From: Vicinamibacterales bacterium
Lineage (GTDB): Bacteria > Acidobacteriota > Vicinamibacteria > Vicinamibacterales > UBA2999
Direction of reading: 5' to 3'
Length of the DNA stretch: 64,000 bases
Assembly: GCA_050246635.1 (NCBI GenBank)
Contig: JBFWVR010000008.1
Location: forward strand, 169,217-233,216
Part shown: positions 11,291-23,722 of the stretch, in pieces
Numbering within the stretch: position 1 is the stretch's first letter
Layout of the letters: each line of letters starts with the position of its first letter
Notes under the pieces: model-generated
The model's database searches: none
The model's input: the letters and a program-made list of their open reading frames with translations, nothing else
Told to the model about the DNA's origin: nothing
Program-made: the position numbers and the translations under genes

Positions 11291-13138
11291 TCAGCGCCGG
11301 TCGAGCGGAATCGTCAGCTGGCGTGCGCCCGTGACGGCGAGCTCGACGGGGATTTCCCATTCGCCGCGCGTCGCGCTGCGGAGCGGGCTGAAACTGCCGC
11401 TGTTCCGGTCCGACTCGAGCACGGCCAGGACGGACGGCGGCAGCGCGGGGAGCGCCTCGCCGGCGACGACCGCGCCCTGGTCCGGCGCGGACAGCCGGAC
11501 GTAGAGGCGGTTGGAACGGCGGGCGCGGTTGAACGAGCGGATGATCTGCGAGACGCGCTGCGACTCGAGGCCGCGGGTCTCGCGCCGATCCTCGGCCGAG
11601 AGCCGGGACGCGTCCGCCACCAGCAGCTGCAGCGAACCGGACACGTTCTCCGGGATCGTGATCGTCGTGGTCTTGATGAATTCACGGCCGAGCGACGAGC
11701 GCAGGGCGACCTTCACGTCGAGCGTCTCGCCGGGACGGGGCCGCTGGTCCTCGATCCAGACGCGCTCGATGCTCGCCTCGAGGGCCTGCTCGGTGGCATC
11801 GATCGTCAGGGAGACCCGCTCGACGTCGACCGGTTCACTCGCGTTCTTGAGCAGGAACGTGAGGGGGGCCGCCACGTACGCCGCGGCATTCCCGGCCGGC
11901 TGATCGCCGGTGAAGATGTCCTCGAAGGCGAGGTCGCCGTGCTGGCCCAGCGTGGCGGTGCCGCGAATCGTGAACGACGCCGGGCCTGCCGCGCGTTCGT
12001 ACGACGTCAGCACGTTGGCCACGGCCAGGTAGGTCAGCAGCGGCGTGAACGTCTGGTCCTTGACCACCGTGAACGAAAACGTGCGCGTGTCGCTGCGGTC
12101 CGAGTTGAGGGTGATGTCGACCGGGATGAGCGTCGGCTGCGCCCCGAGCGTGCCGGCGATTGCCGTCGCGCGGTCCTGCCGCATCGTGCCGATCACGTCC
12201 CCGAAGCTCGCAAGCTTGGACGACTGCATCAGGCTCGGCAGCACGACGTGCACGTCGGCCGCCGTCAGCGGGAACTCGGTCGGCCCGAGGTTGTACATGG
12301 GGTGGCCGAACGCGTAGAGGCGGTTGCCGTCGACGTAGGTCACCGTGCCCGTCGAGCCGAGGACGAAGTCGCCCGACAGCAGCTCGACACCCACGGCGTC
12401 CCCGGGCCGCAGCGCCGCGGGCGCCGGGCCGGCCTGACTCCGGGCCGCTGCGGCCGTCCCGCCCGCGGAGACCGGGACGAAGCCGCCGTCGCTCAGCGCG
12501 GGGGCCAGGGTCTGGAGCACCGACGCCTCGATGCCGGCGGTGACCAGCGGCAGCGCGATCGGGTGCAGCAGGCTGGCCGTCCGGGCGGACACCACACCCG
12601 TGCCGGACACCACCTCCGTGTCGCCGGGGGCGTTGGCAAAGGCTGCGGACCGCCCGAGGTCCCGGGCCCAGATCCGGACGAGATCGGCGGGACCGGCCTG
12701 CCAGTTCATGGCCACGGCACGGCTGCCACGCGCGGGCGCGTCCAGGGCTGCCGCATCCACCATCTCGGCGATGGGCGTGATGCCGGCGATGGGTTCCGTC
12801 GAGAACTGGCCCAGCGCGTACGACACCGCCCCGAGCAGCTTGCCGTCGATGTAGACCGGGCTCCCGCTCATGCCCGCGATCACGCCGGTCTCGGCAAGCG
12901 GGCCGCCCTCGAGCCGCGCGAGGATGAGATCGCGCTTCGGCCCCACGACGTTCCGCAACACCCCCAGGATGTGGGCCTTGAACGGCTCGAGCTGGGAGCC
13001 CTGGAAGACCGTCTCGCCCGTGCCGACCATGCCGGGCCGGACGTCCGACACAGGAAAGAACGGGGTCTGCGCGGCCGGGGTGCCGGACACGAACCAGAGG
13101 AGCGCCGCGGACAGGGTGAGCAGGAGTCGTCGGGTCAT
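11291..13138 (-). CDS. secreted peptidase S55 (SpoIVB-like) domain protein
   Basis: Signal peptide MTRRLLLTLSAALLWFVSGTPAAQ. GVIAGMSGSPVYIDGKLLGAV resembles the serine motif GMSGSP of the SpoIVB family. It ends 16 nt upstream of the beta-propeller gene, so the two probably form an operon. Confidence 0.65.
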   Translation of the reverse strand: MTRRLLLTLSAALLWFVSGTPAAQTPFFPVSDVRPGMVGTGETVFQGSQLEPFKAHILGVLRNVVGPKRDLILARLEGGPLAETGVIAGMSGSPVYIDGKLLGAVSYALGQFSTEPIAGITPIAEMVDAAALDAPARGSRAVAMNWQAGPADLVRIWARDLGRSAAFANAPGDTEVVSGTGVVSARTASLLHPIALPLVTAGIEASVLQTLAPALSDGGFVPVSAGGTAAAARSQAGPAPAALRPGDAVGVELLSGDFVLGSTGTVTYVDGNRLYAFGHPMYNLGPTEFPLTAADVHVVLPSLMQSSKLASFGDVIGTMRQDRATAIAGTLGAQPTLIPVDITLNSDRSDTRTFSFTVVKDQTFTPLLTYLAVANVLTSYERAAGPASFTIRGTATLGQHGDLAFEDIFTGDQPAGNAAAYVAAPLTFLLKNASEPVDVERVSLTIDATEQALEASIERVWIEDQRPRPGETLDVKVALRSSLGREFIKTTTITIPENVSGSLQLLVADASRLSAEDRRETRGLESQRVSQIIRSFNRARRSNRLYVRLSAPDQGAVVAGEALPALPPSVLAVLESDRNSGSFSPLRSATRGEWEIPVELAVTGARQLTIPLDRR

Positions 13139-13169
13139 TGCAACTGCTGGAAAGGCGAGAACTTATCCC

Positions 13170-13198
13170 GTTATACGAGGTTCGCGGAGGTGAATCAA
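13170..13198 (-). promoter_or_regulatory. sigma-70-like promoter for the S55 peptidase / beta-propeller operon
   Basis: The minus strand reads TTGATT (13198..13193), a 17-nt spacer, then TATAAC (13175..13170), 31 nt upstream of ATG 13138. It is an AT-rich island in a roughly 70% GC context. Confidence 0.5.
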
Positions 13199-13245
13199 GT
13201 GCGGAGGTCCCGGTGGCGGGACCGGGAGCGGACGGGCGCCGTTTG

Positions 13246-13275
13246 TTGACACCGCTCCAGTGGCTCCGCTAGCAT
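13246..13275 (+). promoter_or_regulatory. sigma-70-like promoter of the aromatic leader/supraoperon
   Basis: TTGACA (13246..13251), an 18-nt spacer, then TAGCAT (13270..13275). The leader ATG lies 13 nt downstream. Confidence 0.5.
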
Positions 13276-13288
13276 TACGACGGTTTTC

Positions 13289-13417
13289 ATGTCGTTTCGG
13301 CCTTCGTCCACCGACCGCTCCGCCAGTGTCGCCGCGCCTCGTGCCGCGGCCGGCCGCGCGTACGGGTATTGGTGGTGGCGCTCCCTCGATCACGGCGGGG
13401 CTCCGCGCGCGATATAA
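13289..13417 (+). CDS. leader peptide (42 aa) with YGYWWW run; putative attenuation sensor for Trp (and possibly Tyr)
   Basis: Hand translation: ATG 13289 ... TAC GGG TAT TGG TGG TGG (13361..13378) ... ATA TAA (stop 13415..13417), giving MSFRPSSTDRSASVAAPRAAAGRAYGYWWWRSLDHGGAPRAI. It is below the ORF-track size cutoff. No clear SD is present and the 5' UTR would be very short. Confidence 0.7.
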   Translation: MSFRPSSTDRSASVAAPRAAAGRAYGYWWWRSLDHGGAPRAI

Positions 13418-13450
13418 CCCGGACGAAACGAACCACCTGATTCGACCGAA

Positions 13451-13490
13451 AGCGCCTCAGCAGCCCCGCTGCCGAGGCGCTTTTTGTTTG
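13451..13490 (+). terminator. intrinsic terminator / attenuator hairpin preceding aroDE
   Basis: AGCGCCTCAGCAG (13451..13463) pairs with CTGCCGAGGCGCT (13469..13481): 13 positions with one A.C mismatch and a 5-nt loop. It is followed by TTTTTGTTTG. A competing pairing exists between 13393..13402 and 13462..13471. Confidence 0.75.
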
Positions 13491-13498
13491 TGGACGAG

Positions 13499-14980
13499 AT
13501 GACCGCGACCGAGCTGTGCGTGACCGTCACCGGGGCCTCCATGGCCGAGCTGCTCGACCGGCGTGACCGGGTCTCCGGCGCCGATCTGGTCGAGCTGCGC
13601 CTCGACGGCGTCGCCGGGCTCGACGTCGCGCGGGCCCTGGCTGGCCGCCGCCTTCCGGTCATTGCCACCTGCCGCCCGGTGTGGGAAGGCGGGTGCTTCC
13701 AAGGGTCCGAGGCCGAGCGGCGCGCGGTGCTCGAACAGGCGCTGGCGGCCGGCGCCGAGTACGTCGATGTCGAGTTCCGCGCCTCGTTCTGGCGCGAGCT
13801 CGTCGCCGCCGGTGGGCCGCGCGTCGTGATCTCCCGCCATGACTTCGACGGTGTGCCGGCGGACCTGCGGGACCTCGTGCGTGAGATGGCGCGCACTGGA
13901 GCCGGCGTCGTGAAGGTGGCGGTGATGGCCCACCGCCTCGGCGACGTGCTCGCGCTTCGAGGCCTTGCGGACCAGGCTCCACGGCTCGTGGCCATTGCCA
14001 TGGGGGAGGCCGGGCTGCTCTCCCGCGTGCTGGCGTCACGATTCGGTTCCGCCTGGACCTACGCGGGCGACGCCGTTGCGCCCGGTCAGCGTCCCGCGCC
14101 GGAGTACCGCGCGCTGGGATTCGGGCGCGTGTCGGATGGCACGTCCATCTACGGGGTGGTGGGGCGTCCGGTCGCGCATTCCCTCTCGCCGGCGATGCAC
14201 AACGCGGCCTTCGTCGCCGCCGGTCTCGACGCCGTGTACCTCCCGTTGGCGGCGGCGGACTTCGCCGACTTCCTCGAGGTGGCGGGGGCGCTCGGCCTTG
14301 CGGGCGCCAGCGTGACGGCGCCGTTCAAGCTCGACGCGTTTGCCGCGGCGGCGCCCGATGACGACGACAGTCGCCTCACGGGATCGGCCAACACCCTGAG
14401 ACGCGACGGCGGGCGTTGGCTTGCGCGGAACACCGACGTCGCCGGTTTCCTCGCGCCGCTCGACCTGGCCGGCGCGGTTGACGGGCGGCGGGCGACGGTG
14501 CTCGGGGCGGGCGGCGCGGCGCGCGCGGCGATTCGTGGCCTGCGGGCACGCGGTGCCGCTGTCCGGGTGTCGGCCCGGCGGAACGAGGCCGGCGCGCGGC
14601 TGGCGGAGGAAATGGGCGTTGGCACCGCGCCGTGGCCGCCGGCAGGGGAGTGGGACCTCCTCGTCAACGCCACTCCTGTCGGGACGTGGCCGGACGTCGA
14701 ACGCTCGCCGGTGCCCGGCCTCGCGTTCTCGGGGCGCCTCGCCTACGACCTCGTCTACAACCCGGTCGAGACGCGCTTCCTCCGCGACGCCCGGGCCGCG
14801 GGGCTCACGACGATCGATGGACTGGAGATGCTGGTCGCGCAGGCGCGCGAGCAGTTCGAGTGGTGGACCGGCCGCCCGGCGCCCGCGCGGGTCATGCGCG
14901 ACGCGGCGCTCGCGGCGCTGGCCTTCCAGGCGTCCCGCGCCGCCGGCGCGCCTGGGCACGCGCACGCGGTAACCGACTGA
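13499..14980 (+). CDS. bifunctional 3-dehydroquinate dehydratase (type I) / shikimate 5-dehydrogenase
   Basis: The N-terminal half (ELCVTVTGASMAELL...DLVELRLDG...VVISRHDF) is AroD type I-like. The C-terminal half (IYGVVGRPVAHSLSPAMHNAAF...NTDVAGF...GAGGAARA) is AroE. The start is ATG 13499 (or TTG 13484). Confidence 0.88.
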   Translation: MTATELCVTVTGASMAELLDRRDRVSGADLVELRLDGVAGLDVARALAGRRLPVIATCRPVWEGGCFQGSEAERRAVLEQALAAGAEYVDVEFRASFWRELVAAGGPRVVISRHDFDGVPADLRDLVREMARTGAGVVKVAVMAHRLGDVLALRGLADQAPRLVAIAMGEAGLLSRVLASRFGSAWTYAGDAVAPGQRPAPEYRALGFGRVSDGTSIYGVVGRPVAHSLSPAMHNAAFVAAGLDAVYLPLAAADFADFLEVAGALGLAGASVTAPFKLDAFAAAAPDDDDSRLTGSANTLRRDGGRWLARNTDVAGFLAPLDLAGAVDGRRATVLGAGGAARAAIRGLRARGAAVRVSARRNEAGARLAEEMGVGTAPWPPAGEWDLLVNATPVGTWPDVERSPVPGLAFSGRLAYDLVYNPVETRFLRDARAAGLTTIDGLEMLVAQAREQFEWWTGRPAPARVMRDAALAALAFQASRAAGAPGHAHAVTD

Positions 14981-14992
14981 TCCGACCTCATC

Positions 14993-16462
14993 ATGAAGCA
15001 GACGACTTTCGACGAATTCGTGGATCTCGCCAAGCGCGGCACGTTCGTGCCGGTCTGCAAGGAGATCGTGGCCGACCTGCTCACGCCGGTCTCCGCCTTC
15101 CTCAAGATTGCGGAGAACTCCGACTACGCCTTCCTGCTGGAGAGCGTGGAAGGGGGCGAGCACGTCGGCCGCTACTCGTTCCTCGGCAAGGACCCCTTCC
15201 TCATCGTGCGTGGCCGTGCCGGCCAGACGTTCGTCGAGCGCGCGGGTGTCGTGACCGAGAGCGAGCAGCCGTTCATCTCGACGCTGCGGGAGTTGATGAG
15301 CAGCTTCCAGGCGCCCTTCGTGCCCGGGCTCCCGAGGTTCACGGGGGGCGCCGTCGGGTACCTCGGCTACGAGACGGCCACCTGGTTCGAGCCCGCCGTC
15401 GGCCGCGCCGGCGACGCGCCGGTGGGCGACGATGCCGGCTTCATGGTGTTCGACACGGTGCTGGCGTTCGACCACGTGCAGCACCGGATCCTCATCATCG
15501 CCAACGCGCGGATCTCGGGGGACGAGGACCTGCAGGCCCTCTACCAGTTCGCCTGCGCCAAGATCGAGTTCCTCGAACGGGAGCTGGAGCGGGCCTTGTC
15601 GCTCCCGAAGGCCGCGCCGGCACCGCCCCTCGAGCTGTCGTCGAACTTCACGCAGGATCGGTTCGAGGCGATCGTGCGCCAGGCCAAGGAGTACATCGCG
15701 GCGGGGGACATCTACCAGGTCGTGCTGTCGCAGCGCTTCGAGGCGGAGGTCGGCGTCGACCCCTTCACCGTGTATCGCGCGTTGCGGCACGTGAACCCGT
15801 CGCCGTACATGTTCTTCGTGCGCATGGGCGAGCGGTCGATCGTCGGCGCGTCGCCGGAGATGCTCGTGCGCGTCGAGGGACGTCGCGCGGAGACGCACCC
15901 GATTGCCGGCACGCGGCCCCGCGGCCGGTCGGAGGAGGAAGACCAGCGGCTCGCCGACGAGCTCAAGCGCAACGAGAAGGAGAAGGCCGAGCACGTCATG
16001 CTGGTGGACCTTGGGCGCAACGACCTCGGGCGCGTCTGCGCGTACGGCAGCGTGCGTGTCCCGACGTTCATGGCGCTCGAGCGGTACTCGCACGTGATGC
16101 ACCTCGTCTCGACCGTCGAAGGGCAGCTGGCGGACGACCAGGATCGGCTCGATGCGCTGGTGGCCTGCTTCCCGGCGGGCACCGTCTCGGGCGCGCCGAA
16201 GGTCCGGGCGATGCAGATCATCAACGAGCTGGAGCCGGATCGGCGGGGAGTCTACGCCGGCGCGGTCGGGTACCTCGACTTCGCGGGCAACCTCGACTTC
16301 TGCATCGCGATCCGCACGATCGTGCTCGAGGCCGGCCGGGCGCGCGTGCAGGCGGGCGCCGGCATCGTGGCCGACTCGAACCCCACCGCCGAGTTCGAGG
16401 AGACGCGGGACAAGGCGCGCGCGATGGTGCGCGCGCTCGAGCTCGCCCTGGCCGGGCTCTGA
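14993..16462 (+). CDS. trpE: anthranilate synthase component I
   Basis: 489 aa. Contains LLESVEGGEHVGRYSF, GDIYQVVLSQRF and the IAGTRPRG...LVDLGRNDLGRV motifs. Confidence 0.95.
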   Translation: MKQTTFDEFVDLAKRGTFVPVCKEIVADLLTPVSAFLKIAENSDYAFLLESVEGGEHVGRYSFLGKDPFLIVRGRAGQTFVERAGVVTESEQPFISTLRELMSSFQAPFVPGLPRFTGGAVGYLGYETATWFEPAVGRAGDAPVGDDAGFMVFDTVLAFDHVQHRILIIANARISGDEDLQALYQFACAKIEFLERELERALSLPKAAPAPPLELSSNFTQDRFEAIVRQAKEYIAAGDIYQVVLSQRFEAEVGVDPFTVYRALRHVNPSPYMFFVRMGERSIVGASPEMLVRVEGRRAETHPIAGTRPRGRSEEEDQRLADELKRNEKEKAEHVMLVDLGRNDLGRVCAYGSVRVPTFMALERYSHVMHLVSTVEGQLADDQDRLDALVACFPAGTVSGAPKVRAMQIINELEPDRRGVYAGAVGYLDFAGNLDFCIAIRTIVLEAGRARVQAGAGIVADSNPTAEFEETRDKARAMVRALELALAGL

Positions 16463-16470
16463 GGGGATCC

Positions 16471-17046
16471 ATGGTCCTGGTCATCGACAACTACGACTCG
16501 TTCACGTTCAACCTCGTGCAGTATCTCGGCGAGCTGGGCGCCCGCGTCGAGGTGCGCCGCAACGACGAGACGACGCTGGACGAGATTGCCGCGCTCGACC
16601 CGGCGCGCATCCTCATCTCGCCCGGTCCCGGGCGGCCCGAGGACGCCGGCATCTCCCTCGACGTGATCCGCCGCTTCGGGCCGACCCGGCCGGTGATGGG
16701 GGTCTGCCTCGGACACCAGGCCATGGGCCTGGCGTTCGGCGGGCGCATCGTCCGGGCGCCCGTCCCGATGCACGGGAAGACGTCGACCGTCGAGCACGAC
16801 GCGCGAGGCCTGTTCGCGGGCATTCCCGAGGCGTTCCTCGCGTCGCGGTATCACTCCCTCGTGGTCTCGGAGGAGGGTTGGCCCGAGGTGCTCGAGGTGG
16901 CGGCGCGCTCGAAGGAGGACGGCATCGTGATGGCGCTCCGCCACCGCGAGTGGCCCGTGCACGGCGTGCAGTTCCATCCCGAGTCGATCCTCACGCACGA
17001 GGGCCGGCACATCCTCCGCAACTTCCTCAAGCTGCAGGCGGCGTGA
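16471..17046 (+). CDS. trpG: anthranilate synthase component II (glutamine amidotransferase)
   Basis: MVLVIDNYDSFTFNLVQYLGELG and GVCLGHQ (catalytic Cys) followed by HPESI. It lies in frame inside the spurious long track ORF 14632..17046. It could also serve as PabA. Confidence 0.9.
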   Translation: MVLVIDNYDSFTFNLVQYLGELGARVEVRRNDETTLDEIAALDPARILISPGPGRPEDAGISLDVIRRFGPTRPVMGVCLGHQAMGLAFGGRIVRAPVPMHGKTSTVEHDARGLFAGIPEAFLASRYHSLVVSEEGWPEVLEVAARSKEDGIVMALRHREWPVHGVQFHPESILTHEGRHILRNFLKLQAA

Positions 17047-18077
17047 TGGCGGTCCTCAGCACCCTGATCGAGAAGCTCGCGCGACCCGCGGACCTGACCG
17101 CCGACGAGGCGGCCGAGGCCATGGGGGCCATCATGCGCGGCGAGGCGTCGCCGGCGCAGGTCGCCGGGCTGCTCATCGGCCTCGGCATGAAGGGGGAGCG
17201 CCCGGCGGAGCTCGTCGGCCTGGCGCGGGCGATGCGGGCGCACGCGGTGCCGCTGTCGGCCCCGGTCGAGGGCGTGTTCGACACGTGCGGGACCGGGGGC
17301 GACCGCTCCGGCACCTTCAACATCTCGACCGCCGCCGCCCTCGTCGTCGCGGGGTGTGGCGTGCCCGTGGCCAAGCACGGCAACCGCTCGGTGTCGAGCC
17401 GCTGCGGCAGCGCCGACGTGCTGGAGGCGCTCGGTGTCGACGTCGCGGCGCCTCCGGCCGTGGTCGAGCGCTGCCTGGCCGACGCCGGCATGGCGTTCTT
17501 CTTCGCGCCCACCTTTCATCCCGCGATGAAGCACGCGGCGCAGGCCCGCCGTGACCTCGGGGTCCGTACCGCGTTCAACCTGCTCGGCCCCCTGACGAAC
17601 CCCGCCGGTCCGCGGAGGCAGATCGTCGGCGTGCCACGACCCGAGCTGACGGAGCTGCTCGCACGCGCGCTGCAGCTGCTCGGCTCCGAGCATGCCTGGG
17701 TGGTGCACGGCGCGGATGGTCTCGACGAGCTCTCGACGACGGGTTACACCAAGGTGTCCGCGTGCCGGCCCGGCTCCGTGAAGACCTTCTACGTGCACCC
17801 GTCGGAGTTCGGGCTGGCCAAGGCCGAGGCCGGCGCGCTTGCCGGTGGCGATGCGGCCGAGAACGCCGCCATCGTGACCGCGGTGATCGATGGGGCGGCG
17901 GGGCCGGCGCGGGACGTGGTCCTGCTGAACGCCGGGGCGGCGTTGTTCGTGGCGGGCCGCGCCAGCGCCGTTCCCGAGGGCATCACGATGGCTGCGCAGG
18001 CCATCGACAGCGGCGCGGCCCGCTCCGTGCTCGCGCGGCTCGTTGCGGCCTCCCGGGCGCCCGAGGGCCGGGCATGA
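17046..18077 (+). CDS. trpD: anthranilate phosphoribosyltransferase
   Basis: Starts MAVLSTLIEKLARPADLTADEAAEAMGAIMRGEASPAQVAGLLIGLGMKGE and contains DTCGTGGD. Its ATG overlaps the trpG stop (TGATG). Confidence 0.93.
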   Translation: MAVLSTLIEKLARPADLTADEAAEAMGAIMRGEASPAQVAGLLIGLGMKGERPAELVGLARAMRAHAVPLSAPVEGVFDTCGTGGDRSGTFNISTAAALVVAGCGVPVAKHGNRSVSSRCGSADVLEALGVDVAAPPAVVERCLADAGMAFFFAPTFHPAMKHAAQARRDLGVRTAFNLLGPLTNPAGPRRQIVGVPRPELTELLARALQLLGSEHAWVVHGADGLDELSTTGYTKVSACRPGSVKTFYVHPSEFGLAKAEAGALAGGDAAENAAIVTAVIDGAAGPARDVVLLNAGAALFVAGRASAVPEGITMAAQAIDSGAARSVLARLVAASRAPEGRA

Positions 18078-18877
18078 GCTCCGGCACCGCGGTTCCCGAC
18101 CTGCTCGCGGCCATCGTGGCCGCCACGCGACGCATCGTCGAGGTGCGGCGCGGCGTGGAGGCCGAGGGCCGGCTCGAGACACGCGCGATGTCCCGGGCGC
18201 CGGCCGCGGCCGCGTTCGAGGCTGCGCTGGCGGACGCCACGCGCGTGAACGTGATCGCGGAGTGCAAGCGGCGCTCGCCCTCACGAGGCGTGCTCCGGAC
18301 GGCCTATGAGCCCGTCGCCATCGCCCGCGCGTACGCCGGCGCCGGCGCGGCAGCCATCTCGGTGCTGACCGAGCCCACGTTCTTCGACGGCGCGCTCGAG
18401 CATCTCAGCGCGGTTCGTGAGGCCGTGCAGGTGCCGCTCCTCCGCAAGGACTTCATCGTCGATGAGTACCAGTTGCTCGAGGCGCGGGCGGCCGGCGCGG
18501 ACGCGGTCCTGCTGATCGTGGCGGCGCTCGACGATTCGACGCTGGCGCGGCTCGGCCGGAGGGCCACGGAGCTCGGGCTCGCGACCCTGGTCGAGGTCCA
18601 CTCGGTGGAGGAGCTCCAGCGGGCCGTGGACGCCGGGGCCCGTGTGATCGGTGTCAACAACCGCAACCTGCGCACGCTCGAGGTGGACGTGCGGGCGTCG
18701 GACGAGATTGCCGCGCGGATGCCCTCCGGGGTCGTGGCCGTGAGCGAGAGCGGGCTGCGGTCGTCGGCGGACCTGGCGCGGCTGCGAGGGCTCGGCTACC
18801 AGGCGTTCCTGATTGGCGAACGCTTCATGACCGCGCCGGACCCGGGCGCGGCGCTCGGTGAGGTGCTGGCGCCGTGA
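18074..18877 (+). CDS. trpC: indole-3-glycerol phosphate synthase
   Basis: Contains [41 protein letters not shown] and [10 protein letters not shown]. It has an ATGA overlap with trpD. Confidence 0.93.
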
Positions 18878-19505
18878 CAGCCATCAAGTTGTGCGGGTTC
18901 CGGCGGGAAGCGGACATCGAGCTCGCGGGGGAGCTCGGGGTGAACGCCGTCGGCTTCGTCATGTGGCCGGGCAGTCCCCGGGCGGTGCCAGTCGATGCGG
19001 TCCGCCGGCTCGCGCGGCGGCTTCCGCCTCTGGTGACGCCCGTGGGCGTGTTCGTCGAGCCGACGCTCGAGGACCTGCGATCCGCCGTGGAGCTGGCGGG
19101 GATCCGCGTGGCACAGGTGCATGGCGCCGTCGGGGAACATGTGCTTGCCGGGGCGCCGTGTCCGGTCATCCGCGCGGTGTCGCTCCGGGACGGTGCGGGC
19201 GCGCGGCCGGTCGACGCGCTCCTGCTCCTGGACGCCCACGATCCCGCGCGGCATGGCGGCACGGGCACGACGATCGACTGGCACGCCGCGGCGGCCGTCG
19301 CGGCGACGCGGCGGGTGCTGCTGGCCGGAGGACTGACGCCGGACAACGTCACGGACGCGATCCGTGCGGCGCGCCCGTGGGGCGTGGACGTTGCGTCCGG
19401 CATCGAGAGCGCCCCGGGCGTGAAGGACGCGGTTCGCATGCGGGCCTTTGTCGCGGCGGTGCGAATGGCGGGTGGTCCCGGCGGGCCCCCGGCCGGAGGA
19501 CGAAC

Positions 19506-19509
<4 letters not shown>
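18874..19509 (+). CDS. trpF: phosphoribosylanthranilate isomerase
   Basis: Starts [29 protein letters not shown] and is 211 aa. It has a GTGA overlap with trpC. Confidence 0.9.
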
Positions 19510-20724
<1,215 letters not shown>

Positions 20725-20738
<14 letters not shown>

Positions 20739-21510
20739 TGAGCGTTTCGCCGCCCTCCGGGCGGCCGGCCGGACGGGGCTGGTCACCTACGTCACCGCGG
20801 GTGACCCCGACCTCGGCCGCACGGCGGCCATCCTCGAGCGTCTCGCCCTGGCGGGCACCGACGTCCTGGAGGTCGGCGTGCCGTTCTCCGACCCGCTGGC
20901 CGATGGCCCGGTCATCCAGCGGGCCACTGAACGCGCCCTGGCCGGCGGCGCCAACCTCGGGGGCGTGCTCGACATGCTGGAGGCGTCGCGCTCGCGGATC
21001 GACGCGCCGGTCGTGCTCTTCAGCTACGCCAATCCGCTGTTGCGCATGGGCCTCGACGCCTTCGTGGAGCGGGCGGTCCGGGCGGGCGTGGATGGGGTCC
21101 TGACGCTCGACGTCCCGCCCGAGGAAGGCGCCGTGCTGCGGGATGCGCTGGGAGCCGCGGGGATTGATACAATTTTCCTGCTGAGCCCCACGACCACGGC
21201 GGAGCGGATCCGCCGGGCTGCGGCGCTCGGAACCGGGTTTCTCTACGGCATTTCCAGGCTTGGCGTCACCGGCGCACGGCAGACCATGGCGGACTCCGCC
21301 GCGGAGCTGGCGGCCCGGGTGCGTGCCGAGACGGATCGGCCGCTCGCGCTCGGCTTCGGGATCTCCCGTCCCGAGCACGTGCGGGCGGTCGGGCAGTTCG
21401 CCGACGCGGCCGTGGTTGGCAGCGCCCTGGTGACCGTGATCGCCGAGCACGCCGGCTCACCGGCCCTGCTCGATGAAGTGGAGCGGTACGTCCGATGGCT
21501 CCGGAGCTAG
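20725..21510 (+). CDS. trpA: tryptophan synthase alpha chain
   Basis: [29 protein letters not shown]...[18 protein letters not shown]. It overlaps trpB by 14 nt. Confidence 0.93.
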
Positions 21511-21836
21511 GGCTCGAGGAGCTGCGGGAGGAAATCGATCGGCTGGACGCCGTCATCGTCCGGCTGCTCGATCGGCGGGCGCGGTGCGCGTACGCGATCG
21601 GGCGGCTCAAGCGGGCGCGCGGCGCCGCGATCTACGAGCCGGGCCGCGAGGCCCGGGTAGTCGCGCACGTCAAGGCCGTGAACCGGTCCCTCGAGGGGCC
21701 ACTGGACGACGACGCGATCGCGCGGCTCTACGAGCGTGTGATGGACGAAGCGCGGCGGATCCAGCGCGTGGAAGCCCGGGAGGAGACGAGCACCGTCCCG
21801 CCCGAACGGATCGTCTTACCGGATGAGGACAAGTAG
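21495..21836 (+). CDS. chorismate mutase (AroQ class, monofunctional)
   Basis: LEELREEIDRLDAVIVRLLDRRARCAYAIGRLKRARGAAIYEPGREARV is the typical AroQ helix-1/2 pattern. 113 aa. It overlaps trpA by 16 nt. Confidence 0.85.
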   Translation: MAPELGLEELREEIDRLDAVIVRLLDRRARCAYAIGRLKRARGAAIYEPGREARVVAHVKAVNRSLEGPLDDDAIARLYERVMDEARRIQRVEAREETSTVPPERIVLPDEDK

Positions 21837-21842
21837 GTCGCC

Positions 21843-22889
21843 ATGGTCGTAGTGATGAAGGAACGCGCGTCGGATGCCGACGTCGAGAAGGTGATTGCCC
21901 ATCTCGTCGAACTCGGGATGGACGTCCACCGCTCGTCCGGGGCGTCGCGGGTGGTGCTCGGGGTGGTCGGCGCCGGCAAGGTGGATCCCCGGCTCATCGA
22001 GATGCTCGAGGGCGTCCACGAGGTGCTGCGCATCACCGAGCCCTACAAGCTGGCCAGCCGCACGTTCAAGCCGGACGACACCGTCTTCCCGGTGGGCGAC
22101 CTGCGCATCGGCGGCGACGAGGTGATCGTGATGGCCGGGCCGTGCTCGGCCGAGAACGAGAGCCAGGTCGACCAGACCGCGGCCGCCGTGAAGCGGGCGG
22201 GCGCGAAGGTCCTCCGCGGCGGCGCGTTCAAGCCGCGGTCGTCGCCGTACAGCTTCCAGGGGCTCGGCGAGGAGGGGCTCCAGCTGCTGCGTTCCGCGGC
22301 CAACGCTTACGACCTCAAGCTCGTGACCGAGGTCATGGACATCAGCCAGATCGAGGTGATCGACCGCTACGCCGATATCTTCCAGGTCGGCGCGCGCAAC
22401 ATGCAGAACTTCACGCTGCTGCGTGAGCTCGGCCGCACGCGCAAGCCGGTCCTGCTGAAGCGTGGCATCTCGGCGACCATCGAGGAGTGGCTGCTGTCGG
22501 CGGAGTACGTGCTCGCCGGGGGCAACACCAACGTGATCCTCTGCGAGCGGGGCATCCGCACGTTCGAGACCTACACGCGGAACACGCTCGACATCTCCGC
22601 CATCCCGATCGTGAAGCAGCTCTCGCACCTGCCCGTGTTCGCCGACCCGAGCCACGGGACGGGCCGGCGCGACAAGGTCGCGCCGATGGCGCGCGCGGCG
22701 GTCGCTGCCGGCGCGGACGGCCTGATCATCGAGGTCCACTGCGACCCGGACCACGCGATGTCCGACGGCGCGCAGTCGCTCTTCCCGAGCCAGTTCGATC
22801 GCCTGATGGCCGAGCTCCGGATCATCGCGCCCGCGATCGGCCGCAGCATCTGTCTCGAGCCCGTCGCGCGGCGCGGATGGGCGAGGTAG
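21843..22889 (+). CDS. 3-deoxy-7-phosphoheptulonate (DAHP) synthase, type I-beta with N-terminal ferredoxin/ACT-like regulatory domain
   Basis: The core contains [35 protein letters not shown] and [11 protein letters not shown]. It is preceded by a roughly 70-aa domain ([29 protein letters not shown]) as in Thermotoga-type DAH7PS. Confidence 0.9.
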
Positions 22890-23722
22890 CCCCGCCCGGC
22901 ACCGTTGCCGTCATCGGGCTCGGGCTGATCGGCCTCTCGGTCGCCGGCGCCGCGCGGCGGCGCTGGCCCGGCGTCCGCATCGTCGGCGTCGACCAGCCCG
23001 GGGTGCTCCGGCACCCGGCCGTCGTCACCACGGTCGACGTCGGGGCGACCGCTCCCGCCGCGTCACAAGACGCGGACCTCGTCGTGGTGGCCACCCCGGT
23101 CGACGTCACCGTCGGGCTGTTGCCCGCGCTCGCGTCGGTCCTGCCCCCGGACACGCCTGTCGTCGACACCGCCAGCCTCAAGGGCCCGGTCGTCGCGGCC
23201 GCCGGGGCGTCCGGCCTCCGAGGCTTCATTGGTGGCCATCCCATGGCCGGTAATGCCGGCCAGGGGCCTGGTGCCGCCAGCGCCGACCTGTTCGACGGCC
23301 GTCCCTGGATCCTGACCGGCCGGCGGGACGCGGCCGCGGCTGGCGCCATCGCGGCGTTCGTGGAGGGGCTTGGCGCGCGGGTGGCCTGGCTGGACGATGC
23401 GGCGACCCACGACAGGCTGATGGCGGCGATCAGTCAGGTCCCGCAGGTCGTCGCCTCGGCATTGATGGTGGTGGTGGGCGAGTCGGCGGGGGCACAGGGC
23501 CTCGGGCTGGCCGGGCCGGGCCTGCGCGACACGACGCGCCTGGCGGCCAGCCCCGCAGGCCTCTGGGAGGGACTGCTGCCGGCGAACGCCGGCAACGTCG
23601 CGCCGCTGCTCCGGGCGCTCGCCGACCTGCTGCGGCAGACGGCCGACACGCTGGAGACGGAAGGCGCGGTCCGCCGCCTGTTCGAGACGGCGAACCGCTG
23701 GAAGGCTAGCGTCCCGGATTAG
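22877..23722 (+). CDS. tyrA: prephenate (or arogenate) dehydrogenase
   Basis: Rossmann motif [15 protein letters not shown], then GGHPMAG and the [16 protein letters not shown] motifs. The ATG overlaps the DAHP synthase end by 13 nt. Confidence 0.88.

Follow-up and report, generated by a model that had tools for sequence, protein, structure and literature searches.

A stretch of 64,000 nucleotides from a Vicinamibacterales bacterium (hereafter the window) carries eleven genes of aromatic amino-acid synthesis, headed by a short open reading frame with consecutive Trp codons and by a strong hairpin. This raises the question of how such an operon is controlled. A sequence-only reading had proposed attenuation after the model of trpL, and we consider it highly probable that the region controls an aromatic amino-acid operon by classical ribosome-mediated (leader-peptide) transcription attenuation. 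Judged by the codons of the leader, the operon is most likely switched on when Trp runs short, and perhaps also when Tyr runs short. All parts of the system described below lie on the plus strand.

The controlled operon

The whole controlled unit (13499-23722) consists of 11 tightly packed genes, all of them overlapping or separated by gaps of no more than 12 nt. These are aroDE (13499-14980), trpE (14993-16462), trpG (16471-17046), trpD (17046-18077), trpC (18074-18877), trpF (18874-19509), trpB (19506-20738), trpA (20725-21510), chorismate mutase (21495-21836), DAHP synthase (21843-22889) and tyrA (22877-23722). Open reading frames and Pfam domains identify aroDE, trpE, chorismate mutase, DAHP synthase and tyrA, in agreement with the earlier assignment of these genes to the unit. 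The names trpG, trpD, trpC, trpF, trpB and trpA come from gene order, translations and tblastn to orthologous clusters only, rather than from a family search. The gene after tyrA converges on the operon from the minus strand. The order aroDE-trpEGDCFBA-chorismate mutase-DAHP synthase-tyrA is kept in seven relatives in which the whole operon is readable (among the loci L201-L208), and an eighth relative locus has the same gene order with only the aroDE end missing. The operon combines the Trp branch (trpEGDCFBA) with chorismate mutase and tyrA, and contains no pheA.

Promoter and leader reading frame

A sigma-70-like promoter, TTGACA-N18-TAGCAT, spans 13246-13275, with TTGACA at 13246-13251, an 18-nt spacer and TAGCAT at 13270-13275. 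It had been described as lying just upstream of the leader, and a promoter scan of 12800-14000 finds it there as the sole promoter-like site, with 0.0 expected. Among 105 related loci, 90 have TTGACN-N17-19-TAnnnT upstream of the leader reading frame, 72 of those 90 with an 18-nt spacer, and in the closest relative (L201, the metagenome-assembled genome JBFWOG010000006.1, with a DAHP synthase 97% identical) both hexamers are identical to those of the window. It is from these hexamers that the putative transcription start is placed. Only 13 nt separate the -10 hexamer from the leader ATG at 13289, and no Shine-Dalgarno sequence is present. Because the ATG follows the -10 hexamer so closely, the 5' UTR must be very short or absent, and translation of the leader would have to begin without a Shine-Dalgarno sequence. 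The leader reading frame thus appears to be leaderless or nearly so, and its translation would depend on leaderless or short-leader initiation, a mode that we infer for this lineage.

The leader reading frame itself (13289-13417) has 42 codons and a TAA stop at 13415, and encodes MSFRPSSTDRSASVAAPRAAAGRAYGYWWWRSLDHGGAPRAI; the ATG at 13289 is the only start codon in its frame. Within it lies the codon block TAC-GGG-TAT-TGG-TGG-TGG (Y-G-Y-W-W-W, 13361-13378), with TAC at 13361-13363, then GGG, TAT at 13367-13369 and three TGG codons at 13370-13378. This is the proposed site of ribosome stalling. Translation and direct reading put the frame, the three TGG codons and the preceding TAC-GGG-TAT at the positions that the sequence-only reading had given. 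The string TGGTGGTGG occurs three times on both strands of the 64-kb window, where 0.45 occurrences are expected; the two remaining occurrences overlap each other within tyrA and are out of frame.

The terminator

Downstream of the leader stop, RNA folding gives a hairpin made of two segments. Segment 3 (13451-13468) consists of the terminator 5' arm (13451-13463) and the loop (13464-13468), and can pair with either segment 2, described below, or segment 4. Segment 4 (13469-13490) comprises the 3' arm (13469-13481) and the U-tract TTTTTGTTTG (13481-13490). The stem starts 33 nt past the leader stop and contains one A.C mismatch (13459/13473), in line with what had been claimed for it, and its energy in RNAfold is -27.9 kcal/mol. 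One detail has to be corrected, namely that the U-tract would run into the aroDE start: 8 nt (TGGACGAG) intervene before the ATG at 13499. With a stringent hairpin scan of our own, this is the only strong terminator-like hairpin on either strand of the 64-kb window. A simple terminator scan of 12800-14000 returned nothing, its stem and loop rules being too narrow for this hairpin, and the terminator calls rest on RNAfold and our own scan, which replace it. Since the gene upstream of the leader is divergent, the terminator does not serve that gene.

The same hairpin is found in all 38 relatives that were scored, with stems of 12-17 bp and with a U-tract after the hairpin in every one of these loci. 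It is also the RNAalifold consensus structure of the alignment. Across 40 loci, chosen for the pairing statistics by protein similarity only, terminator pairing is kept in 92.9% of cells, and 5 pairs have changed on both sides.

A competing antiterminator

An attenuator of this type requires a second helix that excludes the terminator. The 5' strand of such an antiterminator is segment 2 (13396-13410), which lies within the leader reading frame, from 26 nt past the first W codon to 4 nt short of the stop. It is made up of CGGGGCU (13396-13402), C13404 and GCGC (13407-13410), and is the homologue of a family motif, CUGAAGRGGC. In the best pairing, CGGGGCU at 13396-13402 pairs with AGCCCCG at 13462-13468, C13404 with G13460, and GCGC at 13407-13410 with GCGC at 13452-13455. 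We folded the RNA downstream of a ribosome stalled on the W codons in the state in which the 3' arm is still to be transcribed; in this fold, the antiterminator conformer of the folded segment has an energy of -24.4 kcal/mol, against -27.9 kcal/mol for the terminator. The sequence-only reading, which had left this comparison of the two conformers to be made, had also predicted a competing helix. The helix is there, but not in the predicted register, 13393-13402 with 13462-13471 (10 bp), which overlaps the best fold and borrows 3 nt of the terminator 3' arm.

In the window, the antiterminator is interrupted (7 + 1 + 4 bp), a few kcal/mol weaker than the terminator, and shifted in register relative to the family consensus, a shift that it shares with the closest relative. 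The segment 2 duplex has an energy of -18.8 kcal/mol (p = 0.04 against shuffles). In the family, CUGAAGRGGC pairs with GCCUCUUCAG, segment 3 occupying columns 112-125 of the alignment. All 38 scorable loci found by AroDE similarity have a W/Y leader, a terminator and a segment within the reading frame complementary to the 5' arm; the duplex of segment 2 with this arm averages -19.6 kcal/mol, and in 28 of the 38 it reaches p <= 0.05 against shuffles. Over the same 40 loci as above, antiterminator pairing is kept in 91.0% of cells, as opposed to 42-57% in slid controls (35-58% for slid controls of terminator and antiterminator taken overall). Because the core hardly varies, support for the antiterminator is mostly a matter of maintained pairing and not of compensatory change.

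Other helices were also considered. A possible segment 1, or protector, is found at 13317-13340, where the minimum free energy fold of the naked RNA pairs it with the W run and segment 2. In about 27 of the 38 relatives the corresponding folds contain an upstream partner for segment 2, and complementarity of the upstream region to segment 2 is -12.95 kcal/mol, versus -12.21 for shuffled sequence and -11.29 for coding region. A conserved 1:2 protector hairpin is weakly supported by these values. In equilibrium folds of the naked RNA, the antiterminator is formed in 24 of 38 loci, and termination would therefore come about mainly through a ribosome at the stop codon. A general helix between the W run and a CCACCGCGCG motif after the stop was rejected: it is paired in 58% of cells compared with 36-44%, is clade-specific, and the motif is lacking in the closest relative, L201. 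In some loci this helix is very strong, as in L152 (15 bp, -26.1 kcal/mol).

Ribosome geometry and the proposed mechanism

In the trpL model, the position of the ribosome decides between the two helices, and the spacing of the elements is consistent with this. In 82 of 113 leaders, the stop codon follows the beginning of segment 2 by 6-7 codons. If the A site is placed on codons 1-4 of the W run, segment 2 pairs with at least 7 nt of the 5' arm in 34-36 of 38 loci. When the RNA is masked by a ribosome on the Trp codons, an antiterminator of at least 7 nt forms in 28 of 38 loci, as against 6 of 38 when the mask is placed at the stop. The classical trpL geometry that had been suggested for this locus holds in every sequence-level prediction that could be tested, from the reading frame and the spacing of the stop to both helices and the gene content. 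Our computations show which elements are present, that the two helices exclude each other, how the parts are spaced, and that the arrangement is conserved across the order.

The proposed mechanism runs as follows. Transcription would start at the TTGACA-N18-TAGCAT promoter, and a ribosome would translate the 42-codon leader from nearly the first nucleotide of the transcript, following RNA polymerase closely. If charged tRNA-Trp (possibly tRNA-Tyr) is scarce, the ribosome would stall on Y-G-Y-W-W-W (13361-13378), with a footprint ending at about 13390. Segment 2 would then be free to pair with the emerging terminator 5' arm (13452-13468), the terminator would be blocked, and polymerase would read into aroDE-trpEGDCFBA-chorismate mutase-DAHP synthase-tyrA. 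If the codons are read fast, the ribosome would reach the TAA at 13415 and cover segment 2, the 5' arm would pair with the 3' arm (13469-13481), and transcription would end in the U-tract. Translation of the leader, its coupling to transcription and the response to Trp and Tyr are the steps of this scheme that we infer from the DNA.

A more specific version is conceivable, but on balance we hold it to be doubtful. Here W-W-W-Y-W would be a dual-input sensor for the charging of both tRNA-Trp and tRNA-Tyr, set in a leaderless reading frame, in which the terminating ribosome and not a 1:2 hairpin enforces termination, and in which the aroDE Shine-Dalgarno sequence is also hidden in about half of the species. 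Such a dual Trp/Tyr input would suit this operon, whose end products are exactly these two amino acids.

Arrest by the nascent peptide, in the manner of TnaC, was tried as an explanation for the conserved ...TEEASALA* tail of the leader and rejected. The codons for T-E-E/G-A make up the antiterminator strand, and the rest of the tail, like the position of the stop, is not the same from clade to clade.

Conservation in Vicinamibacterales

About 150 Vicinamibacterales loci have the same arrangement directly upstream of aroDE-trpE: a W-W-W-Y-W leader reading frame, CUGAAGRGGC within this frame, a stop about 7 codons further on, and a terminator of 12-17 bp. The leader is conserved in more than 100 soil acidobacteria of this order. 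The sequence-only reading had staked itself on conservation among relatives, and in their alignment the W run, the stop position and both helices are conserved. The leader also emerges from a search that makes no use of the Trp codons. Using only a DNA pattern of segments 2, 3 and 4, run on species-representative genomes, 120 loci were retrieved, 114 of them linked to aroDE, and 113 of these 114 have at least two in-frame Trp codons just upstream. The leader consensus is W(53%)-W(82%)-W(88%)-Y(83%)-W(49%), with mean codon counts of 2.83 (W), 1.41 (Y) and 0.32 (F) per 9-codon block. The conserved Tyr position is occupied by either of the synonymous codons, TAT (104) or TAC (55). That Tyr codons next to the Trp run would fit the gene content had been suggested from the window; in agreement with this, 83% of leaders have a Y at the same position.

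A covariance model (R1) was built from 70 related leaders, with the window left out. It finds the window at 13361-13487 with 40.8 bits (E = 7.5e-10, model positions 1-123), and gives 42.7-110 bits with all Vicinamibacterales loci whose sequence extends into the region upstream of aroDE. R1 has no plus-strand matches in other acidobacterial classes or in other phyla, and in Blastocatellia and Terriglobia-like loci no reading frame with a W run was found ahead of aroDE. In 72 loci, the 10 kb before DAHP synthase were scanned for a W run with a terminator, and none was found, by a procedure that recovered only 4 of 7 positives. In the literature, no trp attenuator or leader peptide from acidobacteria or Vicinamibacter was found.

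Alternative explanations

A terminator/antiterminator pair would serve any sensor equally well, and given the very short 5' UTR and the lack of a Shine-Dalgarno sequence, the leader could be untranslated, with the UGG/UAU run and the hairpins forming a protein- or ligand-binding switch (TRAP-like, T-box or riboswitch). We regard this as very improbable. In Bacillus subtilis, TRAP sites consist of 9-11 (G/U)AG triplets that are 2-3 nt apart and overlap the antiterminator. TRAP thus needs 9-11 spaced repeats, whereas the leaders described here have merely 3-5 contiguous triplets, and the window has 3 contiguous UGG triplets only and no spaced GAG/UAG array. In Rfam 15, no family of any kind, T-box and riboswitches included, matches 12500-14500 even at E <= 10, and there is no match at the gathering score in the whole window and four related loci, so the element belongs to none of the known leader, T-box or riboswitch families. 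Several features also argue against an untranslated RNA: the run is always in frame with a reading frame that starts just past the promoter, the stop of this frame is at a nearly fixed distance from segment 2, and the Tyr position takes either of the synonymous codons TAT and TAC. Beyond these parts, the leader varies in sequence and length, unlike a ligand-binding aptamer. Another possibility, the least probable of those considered, is a free-standing gene for a small protein or small RNA with a constitutive terminator, where aroDE has a separate promoter and the antiterminator is incidental. A released RNA or peptide could have its own role, as in S. meliloti, where both the attenuated trpL transcript (rnTrpL) and the leader peptide (peTrpL) have functions in trans as well (PMC6614838, PMC7298713). 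Against this, the peptide is unconserved outside the W/Y block and the segment 2 codons, and complementarity between segments 2 and 3 is found at a fixed place in the reading frame in nearly all loci. The gap between terminator and aroDE is 4-40 nt in most relatives and 17 nt in the window, so short that there is no room for a separate aroDE promoter, and the scan detected none.

It could also be that control is mainly translational, through a hairpin that hides the aroDE ribosome-binding site or through re-initiation, with termination being secondary. About half of the relatives have the ATG of aroDE 7-13 nt after ...GAAGAGGC, and for this reason the 3' arm contains the likely aroDE Shine-Dalgarno sequence in these species; a role of leader genes in re-initiation has been proposed in general (PMC4833913). 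In the window, however, the GAGG (13475-13478) is 20 nt from the ATG at 13499. From the leader stop to the aroDE start there are 65-160 nt in most loci and up to about 290 nt in outliers, and the distance discussed for re-initiation, 10-11 bp (PMC4833913), is far below this spacing. The U-tract after the hairpin in every locus is the signature of an intrinsic terminator. Translational control would supplement transcription attenuation and not replace it, and as the main mode of control it is very unlikely, even though we give it slightly more weight than the other alternatives.

Comparison with known systems

Leader-peptide attenuation as preferred here has its closest model in Escherichia coli trpL (Rfam Trp_leader, RF00513). 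In both, a short leader reading frame carries tandem Trp codons, the first structural gene is directly preceded by an intrinsic terminator, and the antiterminator is formed with the terminator 5' arm. The leader stop lies where a ribosome that terminates there would cover the antiterminator strand. There is no similarity in sequence or to the covariance model (RF00513 gave no match), and the designs differ in several respects. The leader described here has 42 codons, with 3 Trp codons and flanking Tyr codons, while E. coli trpL has 14 codons with 2 Trp codons. It also differs in having no Shine-Dalgarno sequence, a very short 5' UTR and a weakly supported 1:2 pause/protector hairpin. Unlike the E. 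coli trp operon, the operon also includes aroDE, chorismate mutase, DAHP synthase and tyrA. In gene content it is more like the aromatic supraoperon of Bacillus subtilis, aroFBH-trpEDCFBA-hisC-tyrA-aroE, which is controlled by TRAP. In both cases trp genes are found inside a larger aromatic operon with tyrA and aro genes, under a terminator/antiterminator switch in the leader. In B. subtilis, however, the sensor is the TRAP protein on (G/U)AG repeats, whereas a translating ribosome is proposed here; the gene order is different, and the trp attenuator is located inside the supraoperon and not at the operon head.

Leader-peptide attenuation of trp genes (trpEGDCFBA) in high-GC hosts outside Proteobacteria is shared with trpL of Corynebacterium glutamicum and with the Streptomyces trpE leader, for which this type of control is cited in PMC4833913 and PMC1262725. 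These leaders belong to a different phylum and are unrelated in sequence. C. glutamicum has two separate attenuators, in contrast to the one Trp and Tyr leader for the common pathway and the Trp and Tyr branches found here. According to the summary of Neshat et al. 2014 in PMC11802643, a mixed Phe-Tyr-Phe leader in C. glutamicum, aroR, controls a DAHP synthase operon, and in this one tested mixed aromatic leader, Tyr supply is cited as having no effect. By analogy with aroR, the Tyr codons of the present leader may be no sensor of Tyr either. Another parallel is Deinococcus deserti, where leaderless leader peptides, including that of trpEGD, are known with starts mapped by dRNA-seq (PMC4007540). 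There, as here, the leader reading frame begins at or a few nt from the transcription start and has no Shine-Dalgarno sequence, with the start in our case deduced from the promoter hexamers. The trpEGD leader of D. deserti is from a different phylum and has an unrelated sequence.

Implications

The mechanism is a textbook one, and the gain is in breadth and annotation and not in a new principle. Acidobacteriota are among the most abundant soil phyla, and to our knowledge gene regulation in them is almost unstudied. The leader is a well-defined cis-regulatory RNA that is conserved across an order, and a candidate for a new Rfam family, as R1 separates members cleanly from non-members. Its small reading frame is missed by gene callers, and the annotation can now be corrected. 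If the proposed mechanism is right, the locus would be evidence that transcription-translation coupling operates in Vicinamibacterales, where leaderless translation probably operates as well. One leader appears to combine two amino-acid signals over a fused operon of the common pathway and the Trp and Tyr branches. Should the dual-input version turn out to be true, a single RNA switch would gate both transcription and translation in about half of the species, and the leader would become the first family of leader-peptide attenuators to be described in Acidobacteriota, as well as a variant of distinct design.

The leader region and its operon

The sequence-only reading had proposed a ribosome-mediated attenuator in front of an aromatic amino acid operon, and when the sequence was read directly all of the elements it lists were found at their positions. 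On the plus strand, the leader ORF runs from ATG 13289 to TAA 13415-13417 and translates as MSFRPSSTDRSASVAAPRAAAGRAYGYWWWRSLDHGGAPRAI*. It contains the putative regulatory codons TAC-GGG-TAT (13361-13369, plus strand), directly followed by TGG-TGG-TGG (13370-13378). The nonamer TGGTGGTGG occurs three times on both strands of the 64-kb window (0.45 expected), and the remaining two copies overlap each other within tyrA, out of frame. An 80-codon GTG ORF on the plus strand (13260-13502) spans the entire leader region in a different frame; it is most likely spurious, because the leader ORF and the RNA structures are conserved. The terminator hairpin (13451-13463 with 13469-13481, plus strand) has one A.C mismatch, is followed by TTTTTGTTTG and has a predicted energy of -27.9 kcal/mol. 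When both strands of the 64-kb window were scanned for hairpins with at least eight pairs, at least five of them G-C, and at least six T in the next nine bases, 13451-13481 was the sole hit, and the genome seems to use such intrinsic terminators rarely at gene ends.

Eleven plus-strand genes follow at 13499-23722, in the order aroDE, trpE, trpG, trpD, trpC, trpF, trpB, trpA, chorismate mutase (CM), DAHP synthase (DAHPS) and tyrA. AroDE is a fusion of type I dehydroquinase and shikimate dehydrogenase, the chorismate mutase is of type II, the DAHP synthase has a ferredoxin-like N-terminal domain and tyrA encodes prephenate dehydrogenase. The extended unit suggested earlier, in which aroDE, CM, DAHPS and tyrA join the trp genes, is borne out by Pfam for aroDE, trpE, CM, DAHPS and tyrA; trpG, trpD, trpC, trpF, trpB and trpA are named from their order, their translations and tblastn comparison with orthologous clusters. 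Since all gaps are at most 12 nt or overlaps, and the gene 3' of tyrA converges from the minus strand, a single transcript over 13499-23722 is the simplest reading. The order aroDE-trpEGDCFBA-CM-DAHPS-tyrA is kept in the related loci L201-L208, one of which lacks just the aroDE end. Other acidobacterial classes (L209-L227, L230, L231; Terriglobia, Bryobacterales, Thermoanaerobaculia) have trpCFBA-CM-DAHPS-tyrA only, without the aroDE-trpEGD head, and no member of the leader family was detected at these clusters. Upstream, 11291-13138 encodes a 615-aa protein with a weak Pfam match to peptidase S55 (SpoIVB-like). Because its gene is on the minus strand, the promoter at 13246-13275 and the terminator cannot serve it. 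The promoter of this divergent gene must also sit within the 360-nt intergenic region; the gene is syntenic with the attenuator in L201, L202, L204, L205 and L207.

Conservation of the leader

The nearest AroDE relatives are in Acidobacteriota MAGs of the order Vicinamibacterales (51-62% identity), and of the genomes found, MAG JBFWOG010000006.1 (L201) is the closest, with a DAHP synthase 97% identical. About 40 loci, selected by AroDE similarity alone, have a small ORF upstream of aroDE ending ...YAWWWYWYPAEGA*, ...AAWWYWCTSEEAIALA*, ...SAWRWYWSTTEEASA* or similar; such an ORF with a Trp run was not found upstream of aroDE in more distant acidobacteria. A terminator of 12-17 bp with a U-tract is present in all 38 scorable loci of this selection, mostly 4-40 nt before the aroDE start (a few outliers reach up to about 220 nt).

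A search blind to the Trp codons used a DNA pattern of the antiterminator 5' strand (segment 2), the terminator 5' arm with loop (segment 3) and the 3' arm with U-tract (segment 4) only, scanned over one genome per GTDB species. It found at least 120 loci, one match per contig, nearly all in Vicinamibacterales or unclassified Acidobacteriota. Among the matches listed, 114 have aroDE directly downstream, then trpE wherever the sequence is long enough, and in 113 of these 114 two or more Trp codons stand in frame immediately upstream. The leaders among these matches, aligned on segment 2, have the consensus [A/S]-[Y/A]-W(53%)-W(82%)-W(88%)-Y(83%)-W(49%)-x-x-[T/S]-E-[E/G]-A, with means of 2.83 Trp, 1.41 Tyr and 0.32 Phe per nine codons, and the stop codon lies 6-7 codons after the segment 2 start in 82/113. 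At the Tyr position both TAT (104) and TAC (55) are used among the matches listed, a mixture that has the pattern of coding-type variation.

A covariance model (R1) built from 70 pattern-derived leaders, window excluded, matches the window at full length (13361-13487, 40.8 bits, E = 7.5e-10). Wherever the sequence of a Vicinamibacterales locus reaches upstream of aroDE, R1 matches it, at 42.7-110 bits; it gave no plus-strand match in the other taxa among 160 loci, which include Terriglobia, Bryobacterales, Blastocatellia, Thermoanaerobaculia and other phyla. Several contigs (L007, L031, L050/L086, L097, L110, L135, L154, L157) carry a Vicinamibacterales-type leader with aroDE-trpE, yet their record titles read Bifidobacterium breve, Bifidobacteriaceae, Acidimicrobiia or Actinomycetota; these are probably mislabelled or mis-binned MAGs.

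Alternative folds and ribosome position

To represent a stall at the Trp codons, the RNA 3' of the ribosome was folded as far as the terminator loop, a stage at which the 3' arm has yet to be transcribed. In the window the leader then captures the terminator 5' arm (folded segment -24.4 kcal/mol), with plus-strand pairings CGGGGCU 13396-13402 with AGCCCCG 13462-13468, C13404 with G13460, and GCGC 13407-13410 with GCGC 13452-13455. The 10-bp helix proposed from sequence (13393-13402 with 13462-13471) overlaps this helix but draws three of its bases from the 3' arm. Segment 2 (13396-13410) starts 26 nt past the first Trp codon and ends 4 nt ahead of the stop codon. In the naked full-length fold of the window, 13317-13340 pairs with segment 2 and the Trp run, and the terminator forms.

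In 38/38 scored loci a leader-internal segment with consensus CUGAAGRGGC is complementary to the terminator 5' arm GCCUCUUCAG. This segment is found 13-28 nt past the first Trp codon, usually with 5-12 nt between its end and the stop codon. The duplex has a mean of -19.6 kcal/mol, with p <= 0.05 against shuffles in 28/38 loci. The conserved peptide motif T/S-E-E/G-A is a mere translation of this strand. In the 40-sequence alignment A1 the terminator is 92.9% paired, with both-side changes at five pairs, and the antiterminator 91.0%, against 35-58% in slid controls; RNAalifold, unaided, returns the terminator as the structure. A derived variant is common to the window and L201: segment 2 (…GGGGCU…) has changed, as has the top of the terminator (…CAGCAGCCCCGCUGCC…), and pairing is maintained in a shifted register. 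In a large clade the Trp run and preceding bases can pair with a CCACCGCGCG motif that lies between leader stop and terminator, forming for example a predicted 15-bp helix in L152:107-226 (-26.1 kcal/mol). Across 70 loci (alignment A2, columns 2-19 with 76-99) only 58% of cells are paired vs 36-44% in slid controls. The motif is absent in L201, and window 13431-13436 has just a short CCACC; the pairing appears to be an extra helix specific to one clade.

During a stall on the Trp codons, segment 2 would lie beyond the ribosome footprint, free to pair with the terminator 5' arm; a terminating ribosome at the stop codon would cover it. When RNA up to 13 nt beyond the A site was deleted and the rest folded before transcription of the 3' arm, at least 7 nt of the 5' arm paired with segment 2 in 36, 36, 36 and 34 of 38 loci with the A site on run codons 1, 2, 3 and 4, dropping to 24/38 on codon 5. 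With the ribosome modelled as an unpaired mask, the antiterminator formed in 28/38 loci with the stall on Trp codons vs 6/38 with the ribosome at the stop codon. Because it also forms in the naked RNA of 24/38 loci, and upstream complementarity to segment 2 barely exceeds controls, it may be mainly the terminating ribosome, and not a 1:2 hairpin (an upstream protector pairing with segment 2), that enforces termination, as an equilibrium estimate only.

Predicted promoter and translation starts

The predicted promoter TTGACA-N18-TAGCAT, already recognised upstream of the leader, is present at 13246-13275 (plus strand) and is the sole promoter-like site in 12800-14000. Among relatives, 90/105 loci have TTGACN-N17-19-TAnnnT upstream of the leader ORF, with TTGACA as -35 in 79 of the 90 and an 18-nt spacer in 72. 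From the -10 hexamer to the first in-frame start codon there is a median of 12 nt in these 90 loci and 13 nt in the window, where no Shine-Dalgarno sequence for the leader ORF is visible (13270-13291). This suggests a leaderless or nearly leaderless ORF, assuming a start site, placed from the hexamers, about 7 nt past the -10. Deinococcus deserti provides a mapped precedent for leaderless leader peptides, including that of trpEGD (PMC4007540).

About half of the relatives have the aroDE ATG just 7-13 nt past the terminator 3' arm ...GAAGAGGC (e.g. L016:2965-3004, L017, L020, L021, L034), and within 12 nt of it in 47/95. The 3' arm in these likely contains the aroDE Shine-Dalgarno sequence, so the hairpin would block aroDE translation too. 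In the window GAGG (from 13475) is 20 nt from the aroDE ATG 13499, and GTG 13490 or TTG 13484 are possible alternative starts.

Alternative explanations and known attenuators

A protein- or ligand-sensing RNA in place of a translated leader is unlikely, as the loci maintain the reading frame, the place of the stop codon and synonymous variation at the Tyr codon, and aptamer-like conservation was not seen. It is also unlikely that the ORF is a free-standing small gene with aroDE on a separate promoter: the gap between terminator and aroDE is too small for one, and none was detected. The universal U-tract is at odds with control by translation alone; translational control may add to attenuation where the stem holds the Shine-Dalgarno sequence.

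Attenuation of the trpL type, which would respond to Trp and perhaps Tyr supply, is the most likely reading of these sequence elements and predicted folds. The regulatory logic is shared with E. coli trpL (Yanofsky; summarised in PMC11802643 and PMC4007540). Corynebacterium and Streptomyces, too, are known to attenuate trp genes through leader peptides (PMC4833913, PMC1262725). The C. glutamicum aroR leader is described in PMC11802643 as mixed aromatic (Phe-Tyr-Phe) and as controlling a DAHP synthase operon, with Tyr supply without effect. No Rfam 15 family matches 12500-14500 even at E <= 10, nor the whole window or four related loci at gathering score, and a full-text literature search found no acidobacterial or Vicinamibacter case of such attenuation. 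Given the trpL logic and these two results, the Vicinamibacterales leader is classed as a candidate new lineage-wide family of leader-peptide attenuators using an already known mechanism. The family would have variant features of its own: its Trp and Tyr codons match an operon that makes both amino acids, its leader ORF is probably leaderless, and roughly half of the relatives have a likely aroDE Shine-Dalgarno sequence inside the terminator 3' arm.
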